A stretch of 17,431 nucleotides of DNA. Source: a virus (taxonomy: Duplodnaviria; Heunggongvirae; Uroviricota; Caudoviricetes). The notes under the pieces were generated by a model, which worked only from the letters and a program-made list of their open reading frames with translations, was not told the origin of the DNA and searched no databases. The stretch spans positions 1 through 17,431 of IMG/VR virus record IMGVR_UViG_2541047898_000005. One strand, given 5' to 3'. The position numbers were made by a program, and so were the translations under genes. The stretch's first letter is position 1; every line of letters starts with the position of its first letter. Below, piece after piece: positions 1,701 to 17,082 of the stretch.

Positions 1701-1969
1701 TGAAAGAGCTTGAGTTAAAGAAACCGATTATCGCTCATGGTGAGACACTCTCCGTACTGGAGTTTGATGAACCCACCGGGAAGGATGTCCGCGAGCTGGG
1801 GTATCCCTACCAGATGAATCAGGATGAGTCCGTCAGACTTCTGGCGCATGTGGTGTCGAAATACATTGTGCGGCTGGCGAAAGTGCCGCAAAGCTCTGTC
1901 GACCAGATGTCTCCGGCAGACCTGAATGCAGCGGCGTGGCTTGTGGCTGGTTTTTTCCTCCAGGCCTGA
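1700..1969 (+). CDS. Tail assembly chaperone (lambda G-like short product)
   Basis: 89-aa ORF, TAATG overlap with the tube gene, immediately upstream of the tape-measure gene; contains the slippery heptamer T_TTT_TTC at 1951-1957. Confidence 0.6.
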   Translation: MKELELKKPIIAHGETLSVLEFDEPTGKDVRELGYPYQMNQDESVRLLAHVVSKYIVRLAKVPQSSVDQMSPADLNAAAWLVAGFFLQA

Positions 1970-2118
1970 CGGCTGAATACCTCACTGATCGCTTCTTTGA
2001 CTGCGCCAGCTACTGGCGCATTAATCCCTTCGAATTGCTGAATATGCCGATCAGTGAAATTCCCTTGCTGGTCAGTCAGGCAAACAGGATAGAGCAGGAG
2101 AAACGCACACATGGCTGA
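1700..2118 (+). CDS. Tail assembly chaperone frameshift fusion (lambda GT-like), made by -1 slippage at 1951-1957
   Basis: ORF 1936-2118 is in the -1 frame relative to 1700-1969 and overlaps it across the X_XXY_YYZ heptamer T_TTT_TTC. The fused reading would be ...LVAGFF then PPGLTAEY... The extension ends 7 nt into the tape-measure gene. Confidence 0.5.
1951..1957 (+). other. Slippery heptamer TTTTTTC for programmed -1 ribosomal frameshift
   Basis: Zero-frame codons GGT TTT TTC; after a -1 slip the next codon is CCT (1957-1959), which continues ORF 1936-2118. Confidence 0.5.
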
Positions 2119-4063
2119 ATTTGAGCTTAAGGCGTTGATCACCGGTGTCGACAGGCTTTCTCCCGCGCTGTCGAAAATGCAAAAGAAAATCCGGGGATTT
2201 AAACGCCAGGCGGAAGAAGCGTCACAGGGTGGGCTGGCGCTTGGTGGCGGACTGGCAGCGGGGCTGACGCTTTCCCTGAAATCTTATGCCGATCAGGAAA
2301 ACGCCGCTACCGGGCTGAAAGTCGCCATGATGGATGCGAACGGCGAGGTTGGAAAGAGCTTTCAGGACATCAATAAACTGGCTATTGGCCTGGGTAACCA
2401 GCTACCCGGTACAACGGCTGATTTCCAGAACATGATGCAGATGCTGGTGCGTCAGGGGATCCCGGCAGAAAACATTCTGGGTGGTGTGGGTAAAGCGACA
2501 GCTTATCTTGCGGTACAACTGAAAAAAACACCGGAAGCGGCTGCCGAGTTTGCCGCAAAGATGCAGGATGCTACCGGAACGGCCTCAGAAGACATGATGG
2601 GGCTGTTCGACACAATTCAGAAGGCGTTTTATCTGGGCGTTGACGACACCAACATGCTGTCATTCTTCACTAAAACCAGCTCTGTTCTGAAGATGGTGAA
2701 TAAGGACGGTCTTCAGGCTGCACAGAGTCTTGCCCCCATCAGTGTCATGATGGATCAGATGGGGATGAACGGGGAGTCGGCAGGTAATGCCCTGCGAAAA
2801 GTTATCCAGTCCGGATTAAGCGTTAAGAAAATCAGGGACGTCAATAAAATCATGGCCCGCCAGAAACTCGGAGTACAGCTCGATTTTACTGATGGCAAAG
2901 GGAGTTTTGGTGGTCTTGATAACATGTTCAGGCAACTGGCAAAGCTGCGAAAACTGACCGACGTTAAGCGAACCGGTGTACTTAAGGCAATATTTGGTGA
3001 TGATGCCGAAACCCTTCAGGTGGTCAATGCGCTGATCGATAAAGGAAAGGATGGCTACGATCAGATCCAGCAGAAGATGAATAAACAGGCCAGCCTGAAT
3101 AAACGTGTTCAGGCTCAGCTTGGTACGCTGTCCAACCTGTGGGAGGCAATGACGGGGACCGCAACTAACGGCCTTGCGGCTATTGGCGGCGCATTTTCTG
3201 GTGACGCTAAGAACATCACGCAGTGGCTGGGGGAGTTGGGGGAGAAATTCACGAAGTTTGCGGATGAAAATCCCCGGGTTATTCGCGGCGTCGTCGGGCT
3301 TGCTGCCGGTCTTGCGATTCTGAAACTGGGATTGATGGGCGTGGGCAGTGCCATCAGCATTGTCAGCAGGATCATGTCGATGACGCCGATTGGCATGATT
3401 GCGACGGCGATAGCCCTGGCTGCGGGATTAATTATCACCAACTGGGATGTTGTCGGACCTTATTTCAAGAAGCTCTGGGAAACCATTAGTCCTTATTTTG
3501 AGGCTGGCTGGGAACTCCTTAAGAAAGTTTTTGCCTGGTCGCCGCTGGGGATGGTGATCAATAACTGGGGGCCGGTTGTTAAGTGGTTTCAGGATATGTG
3601 GGACAAGCTGAAGCCAATTATTGAGTGGTTTACCGACAGTTCCGGTGACACGGTCGATGCCATTAACTCTGCGCAGTGGGGCGCGGGTGCTTATGATGCT
3701 TATGGGACGGGAATACCGCCACGGGGATACACTCCTTATCCGGCGCAGTCAAACAACGCCTCCGGTGACACGGTCGATGCCATTAACTCGGCGCAGTGGG
3801 GCGCGGGTGCTTATGATGCTTATGGGACGGGAATACCGGCGCGGGGATACACACCTTATCCGGCGGTAGATCCGGCTCAGTCAAACAACGCCTCCGATGC
3901 CACAGGCTCGAATCCCTTCATGATTAATAAAGCTACCGCGCCAAAAGTTGATGGTGAGATCAAGGTATCATTTATAAATATGCCACCAGGTATGCGGGTT
4001 ACGGAAACACGCTCCAGTGGCATTGATATAAATCACGATGTTGGCTATACCCGATTTTGGTAG
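2111..4063 (+). CDS. Tail tape measure protein
   Basis: 650-aa ORF directly after the frameshifted chaperone pair; Ala/Gly-rich helical N-terminal part, hydrophobic central stretch (GVVGLAAGLAILKLGLMGVGSAISIV...), CAGGAG Shine-Dalgarno before the ATG. Confidence 0.8.
   Translation: MAEFELKALITGVDRLSPALSKMQKKIRGFKRQAEEASQGGLALGGGLAAGLTLSLKSYADQENAATGLKVAMMDANGEVGKSFQDINKLAIGLGNQLPGTTADFQNMMQMLVRQGIPAENILGGVGKATAYLAVQLKKTPEAAAEFAAKMQDATGTASEDMMGLFDTIQKAFYLGVDDTNMLSFFTKTSSVLKMVNKDGLQAAQSLAPISVMMDQMGMNGESAGNALRKVIQSGLSVKKIRDVNKIMARQKLGVQLDFTDGKGSFGGLDNMFRQLAKLRKLTDVKRTGVLKAIFGDDAETLQVVNALIDKGKDGYDQIQQKMNKQASLNKRVQAQLGTLSNLWEAMTGTATNGLAAIGGAFSGDAKNITQWLGELGEKFTKFADENPRVIRGVVGLAAGLAILKLGLMGVGSAISIVSRIMSMTPIGMIATAIALAAGLIITNWDVVGPYFKKLWETISPYFEAGWELLKKVFAWSPLGMVINNWGPVVKWFQDMWDKLKPIIEWFTDSSGDTVDAINSAQWGAGAYDAYGTGIPPRGYTPYPAQSNNASGDTVDAINSAQWGAGAYDAYGTGIPARGYTPYPAVDPAQSNNASDATGSNPFMINKATAPKVDGEIKVSFINMPPGMRVTETRSSGIDINHDVGYTRFW
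3641..3892 (+). repeat. In-frame tandem duplication inside the tape-measure gene (unit 1 = 120 bp at 3641-3760; unit 2 = 132 bp at 3761-3892 with a 12-bp insertion)
   Basis: Near-identical DNA copies encode SGDTVDAINSAQWGAGAYDAYGTGIP(P/A)RGYTPYPA...QSNNA twice; read directly from the sequence. Confidence 0.9.
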
Positions 4064-4746: not shown

Positions 4747-6117
4747 ATGACGTGGAAAGACAGGCTTCAGGATGCGTCATTTCGAGGTGTGCCGTTTAAG
4801 GTTGAAGAAGAAAGTGCGGGAACCGGCCGTCGTGTGGAAACACACGAATATCCGAACCGCGACAAACCCTATACCGAAGATCTGGGAAAAGTCACTTTCC
4901 GCCCGTCCATCACGGCTTATGTGGTGGGAGATGACTGCTTTGACCAGCGCGATCGCCTGATTGACGCGCTGAATAAACCCGGTCCCGGCACGCTTGTCCA
5001 TCCGACTTACGGTGAGCTGAAAGTCTGTGTTGACGGGGAAGTTCGGGTCAGCACATCGAAGAGTGAAGGGCGTATTGTCCGCTTTGACCTGAAGTTTGTC
5101 GAAGCGGGAGAACTCTCTTATCCCACTTCAGGTGCGGCGACGGCGCAGACGCTGATGTCATCCTGTTCTGCACTGGATGACTGCATCAGTGACAGCTTCA
5201 GTGGTTTCAGTATCGATGGCGTGGCGGATTTTGTGCAGAACGACGTCGTCGGTAATGCCGGCACAATGCTGGGGTATGTTTCTGATGCGATGAAAGTGGT
5301 GGATTCTGCCGTATCGGATGCCGCCAGGCTGTTGCAGGGGGATATCTCGGTACTTCTGCCGCCGCCATCGTCAGGCAAAAATTTCGTTGAGCAGGTGCAG
5401 AAAATGTGGCGTACCGGGAAACGCCTTTATGGTAACGCCAGCGACCTGGTCACCATGATCAAAACGCTTTCCGGTGTCAGCCTCGGCAGCGATCTGCAAC
5501 CGCGCGGCGTCTGGAAAACGGACAGTAAAACCACCGCCACGGCGACGCAGCAGCGTAACGTGGTTGCCAGCACCCTTCGTGCGACCGCAATCAGCGAAGC
5601 GGCGTATGCCGTCACCCGATTGCCTGCGCCAACAACTTCCGCGGTGATGCAGAATGCCGCAGTGGGGCAGTCAACAACTTCCGCGGTGATGCAGAATGCC
5701 GCAGTGGGGCAGGCAACAACACCCGCGCAGAGCACTGGCTGGCCTTCCGTCACGCATCCGGCACTGAACAATGCTCCGGCGGTGAAAAGCACGGTTGACC
5801 TGCCGACGTGGGAAGAACTGACTGACATTCGCGACACACTGAATACGGCAACTGATAAGGAGTTGTCCCGTACAACCAGTGATGCGCTGTTTCTGGCGCT
5901 GCGCCGGGTGAAAGCAGATCTGAATGCGGATATCAACACGCGCCTTGAACAGTCTGCACGGATCATTCAGCGCACGCCGGATGAGGTTTTACCCGCGCTG
6001 GTGCTGGCGGCGACCTGGTTTGATAACGCGGCGCGTGACGCGGACATTATCCGGCGTAATGCCATTACGCATCCCGGCTTTGTGCCGGTGATCCCTCTGA
6101 AGGTGCCAGTGCAATGA
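4747..6117 (+). CDS. DNA circulation protein (Mu gpN / gp43-like)
   Basis: Position after the tape-measure gene in Mu order; N-terminus MTWKDRLQDASFRGVPF... matches my memory of the Mu N family. ATG at 4747 has a GGAG Shine-Dalgarno; the track's GTG at 4741 is less likely. Confidence 0.65.
   Translation: MTWKDRLQDASFRGVPFKVEEESAGTGRRVETHEYPNRDKPYTEDLGKVTFRPSITAYVVGDDCFDQRDRLIDALNKPGPGTLVHPTYGELKVCVDGEVRVSTSKSEGRIVRFDLKFVEAGELSYPTSGAATAQTLMSSCSALDDCISDSFSGFSIDGVADFVQNDVVGNAGTMLGYVSDAMKVVDSAVSDAARLLQGDISVLLPPPSSGKNFVEQVQKMWRTGKRLYGNASDLVTMIKTLSGVSLGSDLQPRGVWKTDSKTTATATQQRNVVASTLRATAISEAAYAVTRLPAPTTSAVMQNAAVGQSTTSAVMQNAAVGQATTPAQSTGWPSVTHPALNNAPAVKSTVDLPTWEELTDIRDTLNTATDKELSRTTSDALFLALRRVKADLNADINTRLEQSARIIQRTPDEVLPALVLAATWFDNAARDADIIRRNAITHPGFVPVIPLKVPVQ
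5632..5715 (+). repeat. 42-bp in-frame tandem duplication (2 units) inside the DNA-circulation gene
   Basis: acaacttccgcggtgatgcagaatgccgcagtggggcag(t/g)ca twice, encoding TTSAVMQNAAVGQ(S/A) twice. Confidence 0.9.
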
Positions 6118-9789: not shown

Positions 9790-10293
9790 ATGCATCGTAT
9801 AGACACGAAAACCGCGCAGAAGGATAAGTTCGGCGCGGGTAAGAACGGTTTTACCCGTGGTAACCCCCAGACCGGCACGCCTGCCACCGATCTGGATGAT
9901 GACTACTTTGACATGTTGCAGGAGGAGCTTTGCAGCGTTGTGGAGGCATCCGGTGCCAGCCTGGAGAAGGGGCGGCACGACCAGTTGCTTACCGCGCTTC
10001 GTGCGCTGCTGTTAAGCCGCAAGAATCCGTTTGGCGATATCAAATCGGATGGCACGGTGAAAACGGCTCTCGAAAACCTTGGTTTGGGAGAAGCGGCTAA
10101 ACGAAATGTGGGAGCACCTGATCATCGGATTCCAGACATATCTGCATCAGGCTCTGGCAAATACAACTGTGAGGTATCTTGTGCTCAAAATGACCCAGAG
10201 TTGTCAAAGGATTTTCCTGGGAAGGAATCAACTGAATCAAGAGGTAATTTTATTATTGGATGTGATGACGGCGCAGGGGTTGATACAGGCTGA
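9790..10293 (+). CDS. Tail fibre protein: constant N-terminal part (9790-10096) fused to the currently expressed variable C-terminal cassette (10097-10293)
   Basis: ORF runs across the left inverted repeat into the invertible segment. The post-repeat C-terminus resembles the minus-strand cassette at the other end (GEAAKR...SGKYN...ESRG(N/K)F). Confidence 0.6.
10079..10096. repeat. Left inverted repeat / putative recombination crossover site of the invertible segment (ttggtttgggagaagcgg)
   Basis: Perfect 18-bp inverted repeat with 11911-11928, lying inside the tail-fibre ORF and next to a Gin/Pin-family invertase gene. Confidence 0.85.
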
Positions 10294-10997
10294 TGTTCAG
10301 TGGGTACTCAAGCCGCAGCGCCGGCCTAGAAACTTATTCCGTTTGTGGCAACCAAGGGATAAGAATCAATAGAAGTATCAGACCGGGCGGCTATGTATAG
10401 AAGAGTAAATATGGAAATAGGAGGATTTTATGCATCAGCAGACTTAGGGCGCCTGGGCCAATCACTGACACGTTATTAATTAAGAAAACACTTTAATACT
10501 GGCTGGAACGAGGCCTGTTGATGCATTAGTTCATCTAGCTGAAATGTGAGTGATATATATGGGAGAACGCCGAATAGGAAAGAGCCCAGATTGCTAGGAA
10601 GATGGTTAACATAACTGGCTATAAATACCTCGGTGATACGAGGGAGAATTTATTTACAAGGACTGATCAGATAGCAATGGGTGTCGGAACTCGACCAAAT
10701 TCCTCTTTAACCGTAAATAGTAGCCCGGTGACTGGGTTAATGATTTGCCGATAGGTGAGGAACAGGCCCTGTATATATTTTGCCTACAATAGCGGTGGGA
10801 ACGTGTGCAGGATGATAATGGCGGGGGCCAAGAAAATGACTGCCCTAGGCGACTGGCCGTAAAGGCCAACTGCCGTCCGCCGGGGAGCTCGTAACTGTAA
10901 CTGGCATCGCGTAAAAGTGATCACGGACAGTGTTAAGTATGATTGTGCCGGAGTAGGTCCGGCTGAGTCCCGGCTGCAGTCACTGTTTAATCCGGCT

Positions 10998-11009
10998 GAG
11001 GGTACCCTC
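10998..11009. repeat. Perfect 12-bp palindrome gagggtaccctc at the exact centre of the invertible segment
   Basis: Symmetry axis falls between 11003 and 11004, which equals (10079+11928)/2. Confidence 0.9.
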
Positions 11010-11644
11010 TGTTTCATCCAACTGAGATTGGAGCTCTGCTTTAAACGCTCCTACGCCGGAACCGTCTTATTTCTCAGTGTCTTGCACCAAATTTACGCCG
11101 TCACAGTAACAGAATCCCGTTAACCGCCGGATAGCGGTTGTACTGAACGGCCAGTGGCGTAGGCCTTTCATTACTTTGCCATCCCGCGGTTTGAAGCTAC
11201 ACACGTGCCTACCGAGATGGTCTCACAAAATTTCATTGCATTTGAACCCCACAGAACAGCCGACTATAAGAGGCGCCATCGGTCTACTGTTAGCGTCTAA
11301 AGAGTTAGATGCCCGGATACCTACATACTCGCCTAGATGATTCGTTGATGTAGATATATATTCCCTCTGATCGTGGACGTATTTATAGACAGGTGGGTAC
11401 CCCGCTTTCCTATTAAACTCGTCTTTTCTCTATACGGCGTTATCCAATATATTGTACAGAAAATACATTTAGATGCACTATTTCATGGGCGGGTCACGCT
11501 CCATTCACTACATCAGATTTTCTCACATTAACGGAGTGAAGGTCATTTGATGAGAGTCACTAAGGAAGTGGATTCATCAAGCCTCCTTCCTTGGGTATAC
11601 GTAGTTCTAAACATACCAGTTCGTGCCGATTCTTCTTTTGTGTC

Positions 11645-11928
11645 TTACGTATCTTTTGTGATAACCGCCTTACGGTGCTTGGCCGGCGCACCGGCTAGTG
11701 TACTCTCTGAAAATCGTCCTCTATCAATAACTGCCCCGGCAGCCAAGGCAAGAGGAAACTTACCGCGAGATTCGTGAGATTTCGCTCTTTGATCATCCTT
11801 CGCAAACTTCGGGTATATATCACCACTAAGTAACTGAAAGTTGTATTTGCCAGATCGAAATGGAGATATAGCTGAAATCTGTTGATCAGGTATTCCAACA
11901 GTTCGTTTTGCCGCTTCTCCCAAACCAA
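11645..11928 (-). CDS. Alternative tail-fibre variable C-terminal cassette (promoterless; would fuse to the constant part after inversion)
   Basis: Minus-strand frame open from the right inverted repeat to a stop at 11645, encoding GEAAKRTVGIPDQQISAISPFRSGKYNF...ESRGKF..., parallel to the plus-strand cassette. Confidence 0.45.
11911..11928. repeat. Right inverted repeat / putative recombination crossover site (reverse complement of 10079-10096)
   Basis: ccgcttctcccaaaccaa is the exact reverse complement of ttggtttgggagaagcgg. Confidence 0.85.
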
Positions 11929-11994
11929 CGTTTATGAAAATGAAGAAATAACAAGCAAATGGCATCATTCCTGCTTTTACCAGGGGGATTTAAC

Positions 11995-12549
11995 ATGCTT
12001 ATTGGCTATGTACGTGTATCAACAAATGACCAGAATACCGATCTACAACGTAATGCGCTGAACTGTGCAGGATGTGAGCTGATTTTTGAAGACAAGATAA
12101 GCGGTACAAAGTCCGACAGACCAGGACTGAAAAAGCTGCTCAGGACATTATCGGCAGGTGACACGCTGGTGGTCTGGAAACTGGACCGACTGGGGCGCAG
12201 TATGCGGCATCTTGTCGTGCTGGTGGAGGAGTTGCGCGAACGAGGCATCAACTTTCGTAGTCTGACGGATTCAATTGATACCAGTACCCCAATGGGGCGC
12301 TTTTTCTTTCATGTGATGGGTGCCCTGGCTGAAATGGAGCGTGAACTGATTGTTGAACGAACAAAAGCTGGACTGGAAGCTGCTCGCGCACAGGGACGAA
12401 TTGGTGGACGTCGCCCCAAACTTACACCAGAACAATGGGAGCAGGCCGGACGATTAATTGCAGCAGGAATTCCTCGCCAGAAGGTAGCGATCATCTATGA
12501 TGTTGGTGTATCGACACTGTATAAGATGTTTCCGGTCGGAGATAAATGA
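11995..12549 (+). CDS. pin: Site-specific DNA invertase, serine recombinase of the Gin/Hin/Pin/Cin family
   Basis: 184-aa product beginning MLIGYVRVSTNDQNTDLQRNAL... with the catalytic Ser in the YVRVST motif, ...VVWKLDRLGRSM..., and a C-terminal HTH-like region (GIPRQKVAIIYDVGVSTLYK). It matches the Gin/PinE sequences I remember closely. GGGGGA Shine-Dalgarno 6 nt upstream. The track's upstream Met (11959) is probably not the start. Confidence 0.9.
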   Translation: MLIGYVRVSTNDQNTDLQRNALNCAGCELIFEDKISGTKSDRPGLKKLLRTLSAGDTLVVWKLDRLGRSMRHLVVLVEELRERGINFRSLTDSIDTSTPMGRFFFHVMGALAEMERELIVERTKAGLEAARAQGRIGGRRPKLTPEQWEQAGRLIAAGIPRQKVAIIYDVGVSTLYKMFPVGDK

Positions 12550-12881: not shown

Positions 12882-14180
12882 ATGAAAGCTCGTTTAATAC
12901 CACCGTACGAAAACTACACTGGCAATGTTTTATGGCGAAAAGAGGATTTTATTAATAAAGTCGACGATATCTCAACATCTCTAAAAAAGTTAAGAGATAT
13001 GGGATATTGGGCCAGTGCCTATCCTGAAGGAGATGGCATTACATTTAAATATACCAAGGATAGTTATCAAAAAAGCAGTATCGAAATTCTAGAAGACTTC
13101 TCAATATGCTTTGAGTGGGTAGAAATAGAGTTAGCTAAATCAAGAAGCTCTAACCTAGAATTAGCTGAATTAGAGGGTAAAAACAAAAATATGGAGTGCA
13201 TAGTTATTGTGCCGATTGAGAAGATTTTCATTCAGGAAACCATCGAGATCGGAAAGTATATTTTTTATTGCGGAAGACAATTTGATGAAGAGTCACATAA
13301 GCGATTATCAGAGCAAGATGGTTCGTATATACAGTTTAACTGTGACCTACCATATATTGATTTATTAAAACTTAATTCAAGCATTGATCATAACAGCCAT
13401 GTTATAAACATGTGTTTATCTATAGCTGAATATGCGCTTGATTTAGTCAGATTTTCTCACAGCTCATTTACACGTATGGAATATACCCCTAATCCTGCAG
13501 GTCAACGCTCTGACGGATTTTATGATGTAGAAATCATTCCTCGTGAGAGGACTCATCTTAAACCAATTAAGATAAGTGGAATATCAAGACCCCTTGCTGT
13601 GAGTAATAATTGGCTAGGCCCTCAGGTTGACAGCTTGTATTACCCTGGGTTGCAATATTTATCTTCTATCTACGATGGAGTCGTTGAAAATGAACTTTCA
13701 AAATTAGTTAGCTCCGTAGTTAGGGCATGTAGGCAATCTTTTTATTCAATTGGCGCGGAATCACAATTTCTAAACCTAGTCTTTGCACTTGATGGTCTTG
13801 CTAATATTGACCCAAATTGGAAAGGATGGAAGCAAAGGACCTACATTGCAGCACTTACATGTAATAACTCACTAATCAAATTTAAGAAAAACCTAGAAGT
13901 TTATGACGAGTTATATACTGACGTAAGAAACAAGCTTGTTCATGATGGTAAAGATTTTTACGAACTTAACGTCAACGCGAACGAATCCTCTGAACAAATC
14001 TTTAAGTATATTAAGATAATTATAATACTCATCGAAAGTAACGGCTTTTCCACTTTGCAAGAATTGAGAGATTATGCAGTTCACCTACTTCAGCAGGAGG
14101 ATTATAGAACTGCTTCTGTTGAGATAATTGACAAAGTATCTCTTTTAAGAGGAAAAAAACCTAATTATCCTTCATGGTGA
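12882..14180 (+). CDS. Hypothetical cargo protein with a C-terminal HEPN-like R-x4-H motif (candidate abortive-infection RNase)
   Basis: 432-aa AT-rich ORF with a strong Shine-Dalgarno. Motif DVRNKLVHDG fits the HEPN R-[NQ]-x3-H signature, about 90 residues from the C-terminus in a predicted helical region. Family assignment is inference. Confidence 0.45.
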   Translation: MKARLIPPYENYTGNVLWRKEDFINKVDDISTSLKKLRDMGYWASAYPEGDGITFKYTKDSYQKSSIEILEDFSICFEWVEIELAKSRSSNLELAELEGKNKNMECIVIVPIEKIFIQETIEIGKYIFYCGRQFDEESHKRLSEQDGSYIQFNCDLPYIDLLKLNSSIDHNSHVINMCLSIAEYALDLVRFSHSSFTRMEYTPNPAGQRSDGFYDVEIIPRERTHLKPIKISGISRPLAVSNNWLGPQVDSLYYPGLQYLSSIYDGVVENELSKLVSSVVRACRQSFYSIGAESQFLNLVFALDGLANIDPNWKGWKQRTYIAALTCNNSLIKFKKNLEVYDELYTDVRNKLVHDGKDFYELNVNANESSEQIFKYIKIIIILIESNGFSTLQELRDYAVHLLQQEDYRTASVEIIDKVSLLRGKKPNYPSW

Positions 14181-14256
14181 TTAAATCAACGTGCTAATTA
14201 ATTTTTAATATAACTTCTGCTCCTCGCTCTCAGCGGACCTTCAGCTCAGTGATATC

Positions 14257-14281
14257 GTCCGCTCTGTGTCAGGAGCGGACG
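14257..14281. repeat. Junction motif copy B, forming a hairpin (stem GTCCGCTC/GAGCGGAC, loop tgtgtcag) between convergent cargo genes
   Basis: 8-bp perfect stem read from the sequence; no U-tract, so not a canonical intrinsic terminator. Left half matches copy C, right half matches copy A. Confidence 0.5.
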
Positions 14282-14373
14282 TTACTGACATCACAATGTG
14301 TTAATCAATGGAGAGCAGGTCACCATAATGTCATGGGTATCGCTGGTGATATGATCGCAATACACGACAATTA

Positions 14374-15063
14374 TTATTTAATTATTTTAAAAAGTTCATT
14401 GTAGCTACAACCTTTGAATATTTCGAACTGATCATGGTAATTTGAATAAGCGCTTGCCATCATTCCGATATAACTATCCCATGATGACTCAGAAACTACC
14501 ATTTCACCACGCTCTAATTCATCAATTAAAATATAAATGATATTAAATTGTGCAACAAGAGCAGTGTAGGTGGTGATGAGATTATTTAGAAGGTCTGAAT
14601 GATTAGGTTTGATTTTCCACAAACCAAAACTATCCCGAATTGCAACTAATTCGAATCGTAAATCTTTTGACTCAGAAAGTAACTCCCTCCCACTTGTAGT
14701 GAGATGCTTGTAGAGTATGGGGTTCTCACTTTTTATTCTTGGCTGTATAGAAATAAGTGATTGATAACATTGATGATTTAAGTCCTTTGATCGAAACATG
14801 CTGTCGATGAACAATGTAGTTCTCTCGAAAGCCTTTTCTGATTTTTTGTTTTTAATCCATTCATTTACCCTTGTTAATGCATAAATCGCTAGTCCAAGTG
14901 TTATTGTTGAAACTGTTGCAGTAATTGTTGATGGTTCAATTTTTTTAAAAAACCAGATATCAATCCATGCAAAAGAGACTGAGCCGAGATACATAAACAA
15001 CATGTGACTCGCGAAGTATTCCCAAACACCTTTTAAATAGCTTTTCATGTAGATCCTTAACAT
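14374..15063 (-). CDS. Hypothetical membrane protein (two N-terminal TM helices plus a ~150-aa cytoplasmic domain); real start probably the internal Met at 15048
   Basis: AT-rich ORF. Hydrophobic segments MLFMYLGSVSFAWIDIWFF and ITATVSTITLGLAIYAL. The ATG whose reverse complement is at 15046-15048 has an AAGGA Shine-Dalgarno 5 nt upstream, whereas the first ATG has none. Confidence 0.5.
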   Translation of the reverse strand: MLRIYMKSYLKGVWEYFASHMLFMYLGSVSFAWIDIWFFKKIEPSTITATVSTITLGLAIYALTRVNEWIKNKKSEKAFERTTLFIDSMFRSKDLNHQCYQSLISIQPRIKSENPILYKHLTTSGRELLSESKDLRFELVAIRDSFGLWKIKPNHSDLLNNLITTYTALVAQFNIIYILIDELERGEMVVSESSWDSYIGMMASAYSNYHDQFEIFKGCSYNELFKIIK

Positions 15064-15217
15064 TTTCTTAATTATATTTTATGGTGGTATTTTTGTTAGT
15101 ATCGGTATGGATTAGAAATAGTTGATACTTTTATGCCCTGAGAGCATGAAAACTGGAAAAGCCTTGCTCATGATATAAATAGTGTTAGTTGCCACTGCTT
15201 TGGAAGTTATCCTTTAA

Positions 15218-15412
15218 ATGGGCTATCGGAAAGCCAGACTTCTAGCAGATGCTGAATCCGTGATTTTGCCGCTGGAGCGCGCTGTCAGGCTGAATATGGC
15301 AACAGATGAGGAGCGCAGTCGACTGGAGGCATGGGAACGCTACAGCGTTCTGGTCAGTCGTGTGGATCCTGCAAATCCTGAATGGCCGGAAATGCCGCAA
15401 GAAGTTGTATGA
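15218..15412 (+). CDS. Hypothetical small protein (64 aa; Glu/Arg-rich, predicted helical)
   Basis: ORF with normal (non-AT-rich) composition inside the 640-bp spacer between two cargo genes; no recognisable motif. May be a gene fragment. Confidence 0.25.
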
Positions 15413-15438
15413 GCTCTGGTGTGAGCTTACATATCTAT

Positions 15439-15478
15439 GGCACAGAGTAAAGCCTAATCTGACAGTCCGCTCTGTGCC
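15439..15478. repeat. Junction motif copy C within a 9-bp-stem hairpin (ggcacagag ... ctctgtgcc, 22-nt loop)
   Basis: Contains gtccgctctgtgcc, which shares 12 contiguous nt with copy B; lies between the membrane-protein gene and the RES-like gene. Confidence 0.5.
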
Positions 15479-15702
15479 GAAGCTAGCAAAGCCATGGTCC
15501 TTTCGCAGCAAGTTGCGTAAATAAGGCGTTTTTATCTCTTGAAGCATTCTACAAAGCCAACTCCTCGCTCAAACAGACGTGTCTGTTCAGCAATCTGCCC
15601 GCTTGGTATCAAGGGACGCCAGTAACGCGATACCGGGTGAATTCCTTCCTTAACTGCCCTCACATCATCTTTAATAATAGTTTACCCTGATATAACGGAT
15701 GA

Positions 15703-17082
15703 TCAGAAGTCAATCAGGTCATCGAATTTCTGAGGTGGCTCTTGTTTTCGAACGCTATCTCCCTGATGAATCTCCGTCTCACTTGTTTGGTATTTTACAC
15801 CAGTAATTTTATGATAAGTCATACTGTTGGTTTTCAACAGTAGTGCATCATTTTTGTCATGCGAGGATGAAAATGAACCCATATGTCTCGGTTTTATTTG
15901 TTCCTCAACTATCAACTGAATTTCCGGAACAAAAGCATACTGGTCATCTTCGATGTGTTCATACATCTCAACATTATATCGGCGAGATTTATCTGCGGCA
16001 TGCCTGACGCCGGAAGACTTATTAAACAGAACGACATTATATCCTGTCTCAGCATCCTCACCGTTGGCATCTACCTGGGTAGATTTAAAGCTGACACCAT
16101 CAAGCTTAAATTTATTTCGGTCACCTAGGTAATCGGCAACCACTTGGGTGATGAGGTAATCACTGTCCTGCCTTTTTCCAAAAGTAGGAAGCGTCAACTT
16201 ACGGGAAAGCGTACTGAAAAAAATCGCGCGCTCACTGGTTTTGCGAGTCTGAGGATCAAATTTACTACCTGAGCCGAAACTAATCGAGTCAAGGGCAGAA
16301 ATGTCCAGCACTTTTAGCTCGCGTAACGGTACAAAACAGGCCGTTACTACAATACTGCCGACGGGCGGCCTTACTTCAGCAATTGCCAAATTCACTGAGG
16401 TTGCACCGTAAAATACTGAAATCCCCTGTGCGTTCATACGGCCCGAGCGAGCCAAAGTTGTTGGGGGAGGTCCAAAATTTTTCTCGGGATGCTCCAAGGC
16501 TTGCTTTACTTCCTCTTGGTCCTCAAAAACCCTTGCACGAAAAAGATGAACCTCATCAGTCAGAGTTTTTATCGGTGAATTACTGTCTCTGTTTTTTAGT
16601 TTATCGATATCACTGAAAAGTGAATCTAGGAAATCATTAACTTCACGGTTAAAATATCGTGTTTCTTTCATAAGGGAGTCAGTGGCTTTACTCCAGGTAT
16701 GCGCAAGCTCTCCGCTATAGTGATTTATGTGCCGATAAAGAAACCCGTCATTATACCGGATGTAGTCATAATCGTTATGCGGATTATATTCATCACAAAG
16801 AAATTCATAAATATCTTCAGCTACGTCCCATTCGACGCCCAGTTCTCCGTAGATGACATCCTGCGCGCTATCACCGCGCCCGGAATCATAGATATCCTCA
16901 TATATATCATAGTAGTACTCAAAAACCTCATTCATCATCTTGAGAATATATTTGAGGTGGATGTTTTTACGCTTCCTTTTGCAGTAAGAGCAAATCTGAA
17001 AATTATTTCCAGTTTTTATTATATGCTGCATGACATATTTATCGTTCACGCATTTATGACAAATATACTTATCTTCCCACAT
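15703..17082 (-). CDS. RES-domain-like protein with an N-terminal Cys4 zinc-ribbon-like motif (candidate NAD+-targeting effector)
   Basis: 459-aa AT-rich ORF. N-terminus has CHKC...CSYC. Central segment LFRARV...(~25 aa)...ARSGRMNAQGISVFYGATSVNLAIAEV...(later) VSFKS...YNVVLF fits my memory of the RES (Arg-Glu-Ser) core, G-R-x-N...G...Y.A......A..E. No HMM search run. Confidence 0.55.
   Translation of the reverse strand: MWEDKYICHKCVNDKYVMQHIIKTGNNFQICSYCKRKRKNIHLKYILKMMNEVFEYYYDIYEDIYDSGRGDSAQDVIYGELGVEWDVAEDIYEFLCDEYNPHNDYDYIRYNDGFLYRHINHYSGELAHTWSKATDSLMKETRYFNREVNDFLDSLFSDIDKLKNRDSNSPIKTLTDEVHLFRARVFEDQEEVKQALEHPEKNFGPPPTTLARSGRMNAQGISVFYGATSVNLAIAEVRPPVGSIVVTACFVPLRELKVLDISALDSISFGSGSKFDPQTRKTSERAIFFSTLSRKLTLPTFGKRQDSDYLITQVVADYLGDRNKFKLDGVSFKSTQVDANGEDAETGYNVVLFNKSSGVRHAADKSRRYNVEMYEHIEDDQYAFVPEIQLIVEEQIKPRHMGSFSSSHDKNDALLLKTNSMTYHKITGVKYQTSETEIHQGDSVRKQEPPQKFDDLIDF

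Follow-up and report, generated by a model that had tools for sequence, protein, structure and literature searches.

Positions 10081-11926 of the window (by which we mean the whole 17,431-nt stretch of caudoviral DNA that was analysed, IMG/VR record IMGVR_UViG_2541047898_000005) combine, base by base and at roughly 50:50, both orientations of an invertible P segment that is itself normal and intact. The in-register palindromy that sets this stretch apart follows statistically from the mixing of a sequence and its reverse complement, and is not a real biological feature. The locus itself is a standard Pin-type host-range switch and adds nothing to what is known of invertible segments. We are highly confident that the deposited segment was produced computationally and does not exist as real DNA.

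The palindrome was first described in a reading of the sequence alone, and all of its descriptive claims are confirmed, while its interpretation is partly supported. Position p was said to pair with position 22007-p without any shift of register; it is indeed complementary at 580 of 937 pairs (61.9%, 10067-11003 against the mirror arm), with zero indels and in this single register, the identity being 61.1% at offset 0 vs 22.7-27.8% at offsets -6 to +6. Mirror identity is even along the arm (0.43-0.83 per 30-nt stretch), and shuffled segment controls gave 25.3 ± 1.3%, which places the real signal about 27 SD over chance. A recount of the earlier sample, 10501-10560 vs 11447-11506, returned exactly the same 38 of 60 matches. 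Mismatches near the ends of the arms had been found to fall equally on the three codon positions, and the count over the whole arm, which the sequence-only reading had proposed as a check, is similarly even (108/118/126). Its outer coordinates, 10067 and 11940, turn out to be the outer edges of two 26-bp invertase crossover sites. There is a perfect terminal inverted repeat as well, 19 bp long and not 18 bp as first given. Finally, GAGGGTACCCTC at 10998-11009 is the perfect 12-bp palindrome reported for the segment centre; by itself it is not meaningful, given that six matching pairs in a row have p≈0.06 under the coin-flip model set out below.

The origin of the signal becomes apparent when the segment is compared with a natural counterpart. 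The reference for this test was the e14-type P segment of E. coli MB06231 (locus L001), the length of which is exactly that of the locus in the window. Aligned in register, MB06231 and the window share 93-100% of their bases per 100-nt block of the flanks, and 54-65% within the segment. Each base was then labelled as F (matching the forward reference), R (matching the flipped reference), "=" (matching both) or x (matching neither). Over 10067-11940, with the raw reference, the labels amount to 674 forward, 706 flipped, 484 both and 10 neither, and beyond the crossover sites F is the only label among informative positions. Seven strain SNPs relative to MB06231 are enough to explain the 10 exceptions; six of these SNPs lie at or beside the tfaB gene, namely five within the gene and one, 11132, two bases away from it. 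Three SNPs appear as complementary mirrored pairs, the pattern to be expected of one polymorphism sampled from both orientations. With these seven SNPs taken into account, the two-orientation model explains 1846/1846 positions of 10081-11926 (667 forward, 715 flipped, 464 both), vs only 43-48% in controls with the reference shifted by 1, 2, 3 or 7 nt. The bounds of the mixing are exactly the crossover sites, and every base between them can be read from a real segment in one orientation or the other.

Such a mixture accounts for the properties that made the segment look unusual. Two mirrored positions drawn from opposite templates, which happens with a probability of one half, always match, and otherwise they match by chance at about 0.25, so that a mirror identity of about 0.625 results. 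The coin-flip model, with 0.251 sites at which both orientations agree plus half of the rest, predicts a palindromic identity of 62.6%; the observed values are 61.1-61.9%. Divergence does not yield about 0.62 identity without a single indel. The broken reading frames, in turn, are due to the base-by-base interleaving of the two orientations.

The choice between the two templates behaves like a series of independent fair coin flips. With the raw reference, the ratio of forward to flipped bases is 656:706 among 1362 informative sites (binomial p=0.18), and 705 runs were observed vs 681 expected (z=1.3), with geometric run lengths (364, 177, 83, 44, 19, 9 and so on). Correlations from lag 1 to lag 10 all have |r|<0.04, the template at one position does not depend on that at its mirror position (joint counts RR 184, FR 169, RF 167, FF 164), and base preference follows no consistent rule, the largest pair imbalances being 93:126 and 94:125. 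These statistics exclude several ways of merging two sequences. Recombination or gene-conversion tracts are excluded by the 705 switches at 1362 informative sites and by the geometric run lengths. Majority voting by read depth would anticorrelate mirrored choices and autocorrelate neighbouring ones, whereas the joint counts are flat and autocorrelation is close to zero. Deterministic tie-breaking (e.g. alphabetical) yields no palindromic matches at sites where the orientations differ and would leave an identity of only about 25%; moreover, the base-pair tables show no rule. A graph-path consensus (POA or heaviest-path) switches templates only at shared bases, whereas direct switches from F to R with no shared base in between are common. 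With voting, tie-breaking, tracts and graph paths excluded, what remains is the random resolution, column by column, of a two-way ambiguity. A standard read-pileup or graph-path consensus would not yield choices that are independent from base to base, which argues for a putative random-number step.

How such a step could have come about may be pictured as follows. E. coli UMEA 3199-1, the strain behind the record, would carry an ordinary Pin-type invertible tail-fibre segment within an e14-like prophage with a Mu-like tail, in the order constant 5' part of the fibre gene, crossover site, C-terminus A, tfaA, tfaB (reverse), C-terminus B (reverse), crossover site and pinE. Pin would flip the segment during growth of the culture, and the sequenced DNA would consequently hold both orientations. 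We infer the presence of both orientations in the UMEA 3199-1 culture from the mixture itself, as this is the only evident source of a flipped template, and the scramble suggests that the switch was inverting in the culture that was sequenced. The two versions being equal in length and in their flanks, the assembler apparently kept them as two equal-length alternatives, which may then have been flattened column by column, each two-way ambiguity being resolved at random. As to the specific route, we lean towards ALLPATHS-LG, through its efasta output or through ambiguity codes. The paper on bacterial assembly with ALLPATHS-LG describes that the assembler explicitly stores 'local ambiguities', mixed sites included (PMC3483556), and the efasta format writes alternatives separated by commas (PMC6434015). 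A rule for flattening these ambiguities is not stated in PMC3483556 and was not found in the literature searched. Alternatively, the superposition could have arisen in the wet lab or during base calling, if the segment was finished by direct sequencing of a PCR product or genomic template of mixed orientation and one peak was picked per position. Superposed traces would be in register, free of indels and bounded by the crossover sites, all of which is observed. Nonetheless we regard this explanation as very unlikely, since peak picking should bring base or context bias, ambiguity codes and a decay of quality with read length, whereas the observed choices are unbiased (656:706), uncorrelated and uniform across 1.85 kb, and consist only of A, C, G and T.

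The scrambled segment can be followed into the public databases. Over the 14,063 nt compared, the whole segment included, the window does not differ from scaffold KE701968.1 in GenBank, which belongs to E. coli UMEA 3199-1 (GCA_000460715.1); this 3.56 Mb scaffold of a draft assembly also carries the window's 650-aa tape-measure protein. We take the accession series of KE701968.1 to be that of Broad Institute ALLPATHS-LG assemblies, and GCA_000460715.1 presumably belongs to a series of Illumina-only drafts without finishing. The letters of the window are A, C, G and T only; ambiguity codes are absent. Two spurious open reading frames that run into the segment (Table 1) were deposited as proteins, and both are unique to GCA_000460715.1. 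The exact protein EQX88197.1 is recorded only in this assembly, forms a singleton cluster and has no Pfam domain, and WP_248699682.1 clusters only with its start-codon variant, a UniParc/MetaClust twin that does not have the first Met. More than 3,000 complete E. coli genomes have e14-like prophages to which the segment flanks match at 95-99%; the segment interior is covered by 0 of 5,426 complete E. coli genomes, and a search of metagenome contigs for the exact central 40-mer gave 0 matches. In the literature we found no paper on strain UMEA 3199-1. The coin-flip statistics resemble the output of a pseudo-random generator, and one might think of a sequence synthesised or planted in the window, be it a test decoy or the output of a generative model. 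This is highly improbable, given that the window is identical base for base to KE701968.1 across the segment and that GenBank, RefSeq and UniParc accessions exist for the scrambled ORFs.

Table 1. Features of the invertible locus and its surroundings, in window coordinates. Rows marked as deconvolved refer to genes reconstructed with the natural reference.
Feature	Position	Strand	Remarks
Constant 5' part of tail-fibre gene	9790..10080	+	Genuine; outside the invertible segment, upstream of the crossover dinucleotide
Spurious 167-aa ORF	9790..10293	+	Real N-terminus followed by a scrambled tail; EQX88197.1, 'phage tail protein'
Left 26-bp crossover site	10067..10092	+	CTCTCGAAAACC-TT-GGTTTGGGAGAA; core TT at 10079-10080
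19-bp perfect inverted repeat	10079..10097, partner 11910-11928	.	Longest perfect run in the mirror comparison
Scrambled invertible P segment	10081..11926	.	Two-orientation fit 1846/1846 after 7 SNPs
Fibre C-terminus A, deconvolved (not as deposited)	10081..10560	+	Collar, PF07484, E=1.4e-15; coordinates from the annotation of L001
tfaA, deconvolved, 200 aa	10560..11162	+	Caudo_TAP, PF02413, E=5.5e-32
tfaB, deconvolved, 147 aa	11134..11577	-	Caudo_TAP, PF02413, E=2e-31
Fibre C-terminus B, deconvolved	11579..11926	-	Gp53-like_C, PF21882, E=2.7e-8
Spurious 107-aa ORF	11645..11968	-	Enters the scrambled segment from the pin side; WP_248699682.1; no Pfam domain
Right 26-bp crossover site	11915..11940	+	TTCTCCCAAACC-AA-CGTTTATGAAAA; core AA at 11927-11928; mirrors the left site
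pinE serine invertase, 184 aa	11995..12549	+	Intact, genuine; Resolvase, PF00239, E=1.3e-51; HTH_7, PF02796, E=1.4e-14

Once deconvolved, the underlying segment reads as a normal module, predicted to carry two alternative fibre C-termini and two tfa chaperone genes, all of them intact (Table 1). As deposited, the interior has no open reading frame longer than 77 aa, as had been noted before, and no Pfam domain; after deconvolution with the natural reference, the mirrored fibre and tfa arrangement is complete. C-terminus A and the constant part together make an intact reconstructed fibre of 256 aa, and the flipped reconstruction, with C-terminus B, translates to a fibre of 212 aa. The impression that the element lacks tfa genes and is non-functional was therefore wrong for the organism, in which both fibre ends and both tfa genes would be intact. 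The sequence-only reading had allowed that a homology search might reveal tfa-like genes overlooked through an error of frame or coordinates; such genes are indeed present, though in an unexpected way, their bases being intermixed one by one with those of the reverse complement. Outside the segment, the sequence is genuine: the constant part shares 93-99% of its bases, per block of 100 nt, with natural e14-like prophages and has F labels only, and the pinE stretch is 100% identical to MB06231 and is annotated as pinE, WP_000904960.1, in homologous records. Both crossover sites fit the Din-family consensus (PMC4134206, Table 3).

Natural homologous loci contain the intact four-gene segment in either orientation. 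In MB06231 the Collar end is fused to the constant part, and in 2012C-4221 a 99.5%-identical segment is flipped, so that the C-terminus B orientation is joined to the constant part; further natural loci show both orientations. The natural segment versions examined have chance-level self-complementarity (0.23-0.27), and the median in-register value among the 58 natural loci with both crossover sites is 0.268, with a single exception (L075, described below). Of the two interpretations offered by the sequence-only reading, that of a non-natural sequence was correct, in the form of a per-base mixture of both orientations of an intact P segment. The other, real DNA descended from an ancient inverted duplication that decayed to about 62% arm identity, fits arms that are 62% complementary in register and devoid of intact genes, but its probability is practically negligible, considering that each base fits one of two unrelated templates (99.5% raw and 100% after the 7 SNPs), which no divergence process would achieve, that the template changes 705 times over 1362 informative sites, in runs whose lengths are geometric, that there are zero indels over 937 nt despite 38% divergence, and that natural copies of the segment are non-palindromic. 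The two arms did not arise by divergence of one copy from the other. In-register self-complementarity about a central point is shared with genuine long palindromes and inverted duplications; the difference is that the arms in the window are not homologous copies.

With the e14 P segment and PinE, and with the Din family in general (Gin/Mu G, Cin/P1 C, Min/p15B, Hin), the locus shares the adjoining 184-aa serine invertase, two 26-bp crossover sites in inverted orientation, each centred on a dinucleotide, a constant 5' part of the fibre gene outside the segment, both orientations among natural strains and, after deconvolution, two fibre C-termini, each with its own tfa gene. It differs in that the interior is unreadable as deposited, which is a property of the record and not of the element. 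The surrounding prophage, which is not the e14 remnant of K-12, is equipped with a contractile tail and baseplate module of Mu-like type (sheath, tube, gp44-48 homologues). Both orientations of the e14 pinE segment are known to co-exist in clonal E. coli cultures (PMC4272514), and mixed tail-fibre orientations disturb assemblies (PMC4134206). The PacBio assembly of EC958, with its alternative-allele contigs, and short-read drafts with breaks or gaps have the same root cause as the present case, namely both orientations in the culture (PMC4134206). However, these known assembly failures result in a break, a gap or a duplicate contig, whereas the window holds a per-base random merge, a failure mode of which we found no description in the literature searched.

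The value of this case is one of forensics and database hygiene, as it concerns a corrupted public record with a recognisable signature. A public GenBank/RefSeq record very probably holds 1.85 kb of sequence absent from the organism, and at least two fictitious proteins have entered NR, RefSeq and UniParc (EQX88197.1 and WP_248699682.1). The signature mimics exotic biology, a giant palindrome without genes, which genome scans could chase and trained models could learn. A simple diagnostic is available, namely an in-register self-complementarity of about 62.5% together with every base being that of a sequence X or of the reverse complement of X. Only tentatively would we propose that one particular assembly pipeline yields the scramble reproducibly from any culture holding both orientations of an invertible segment. 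If that were true, legacy drafts would contain a marker of DNA that was actively inverting when sequenced, in the form of in-register palindromes of about 60-65% identity between short inverted repeats, and the marker could be mined across thousands of assemblies, both for invertible switches, unrecognised ones included, and for the purging of bogus proteins.

We surveyed 89 further PinE-neighbour loci, taken from NCBI genomes and IMG/VR and including 58 whose segment is complete, and found the 0.62 signature in none of them; a systematic artefact would be an infrequent one in this sample. A protein search for further scrambled fibres gave, among the best 120 of 6,101 matches, almost exclusively natural fibres of normal length (mostly 230-275 aa, with about 75% identity), which says nothing about how general the artefact is. 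Two of the loci surveyed are unusual in other ways. In one draft assembly (L015, GCA_000495075.1) a gap of 2,089 N begins within the same segment. The exception in self-complementarity, L075, is an IMG/VR contig in which perfect inverted arms of 955 bp surround a centre of 197 bp, which is a different phenomenon.

The scramble, that is, the invertible P segment deposited as a per-base mix of its forward and flipped orientations, gives rise to two open reading frames whose products are fictitious proteins (see the table below). The two have entered GenBank (EQX88197.1, under the name 'phage tail protein') and RefSeq (WP_248699682.1), and have spread further into UniRef/UniParc and MetaClust.

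Two other PinE-neighbour loci deserve mention here. In the draft assembly GCA_000495075.1 (KI538794.1; locus L015, positions 1-2089) a scaffold gap of 2,089 Ns starts within the same invertible segment, and the only resolved genes are tfaB, fibre end B and pinE. This gap is a second mode in which the invertible-segment locus defeats short-read assembly. In IMGVR_UViG_2540341091_000003 (locus L075), positions 1826-3932 correspond to a homologous invertible segment with perfect inverted arms of 955 bp each (1826-2780 versus 2978-3932) around a non-palindromic centre of approximately 197 bp. As a consequence, one fibre C-terminus is encoded twice, once in each arm, and the two arms also share most of a tfa gene. 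Their identity could reflect natural homogenisation, or an assembly error of another kind.

Downstream of pinE lie three cargo genes. The 459-aa product carries a RES domain, with a weak match to the N-terminal HEPN/RES domain. Neither the 432-aa nor the 229-aa protein has a Pfam or PADLOC match. Other strains have Avs2, LEM-3-like GIY-YIG, AAA ATPase, FRG or DUF6602 genes in this place or close to it. The region looks like a variable cargo slot, probably with an anti-phage role. The same region holds a Caudo_TAP fragment, whose counterpart in a homologous complete genome is annotated as a pseudogene; it appears to be the relic of a further fibre module past pinE.

Further features of the window
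Feature	Window position	Details
Scramble-derived ORF	9790-10293	
Scramble-derived ORF	11645-11968	
Cargo genes	12882-17082	
Tail-fibre assembly protein (Caudo_TAP), C-terminal fragment	15218-15412	64-aa ORF, E=5.5e-18
Tandem repeat, tape-measure gene	3641-3865	120-bp unit ×1.9, in-frame
Tandem repeat, DNA-circularisation gene	5630-5727	42-bp unit ×2.3, in-frame

The two tandem repeats account, respectively, for the extra 120 and 42 nt that the window shows in comparison with 19SZHZ886Rt, the closest complete genome. Finally, the mechanical ORF list places pinE at 11959-12549 (196 aa) because it begins the gene at an ATG further upstream, at 11959. In annotated homologues the start lies at 11995, which gives 184 aa (MLIGYVRVS...) and agrees with the start of the Resolvase domain.
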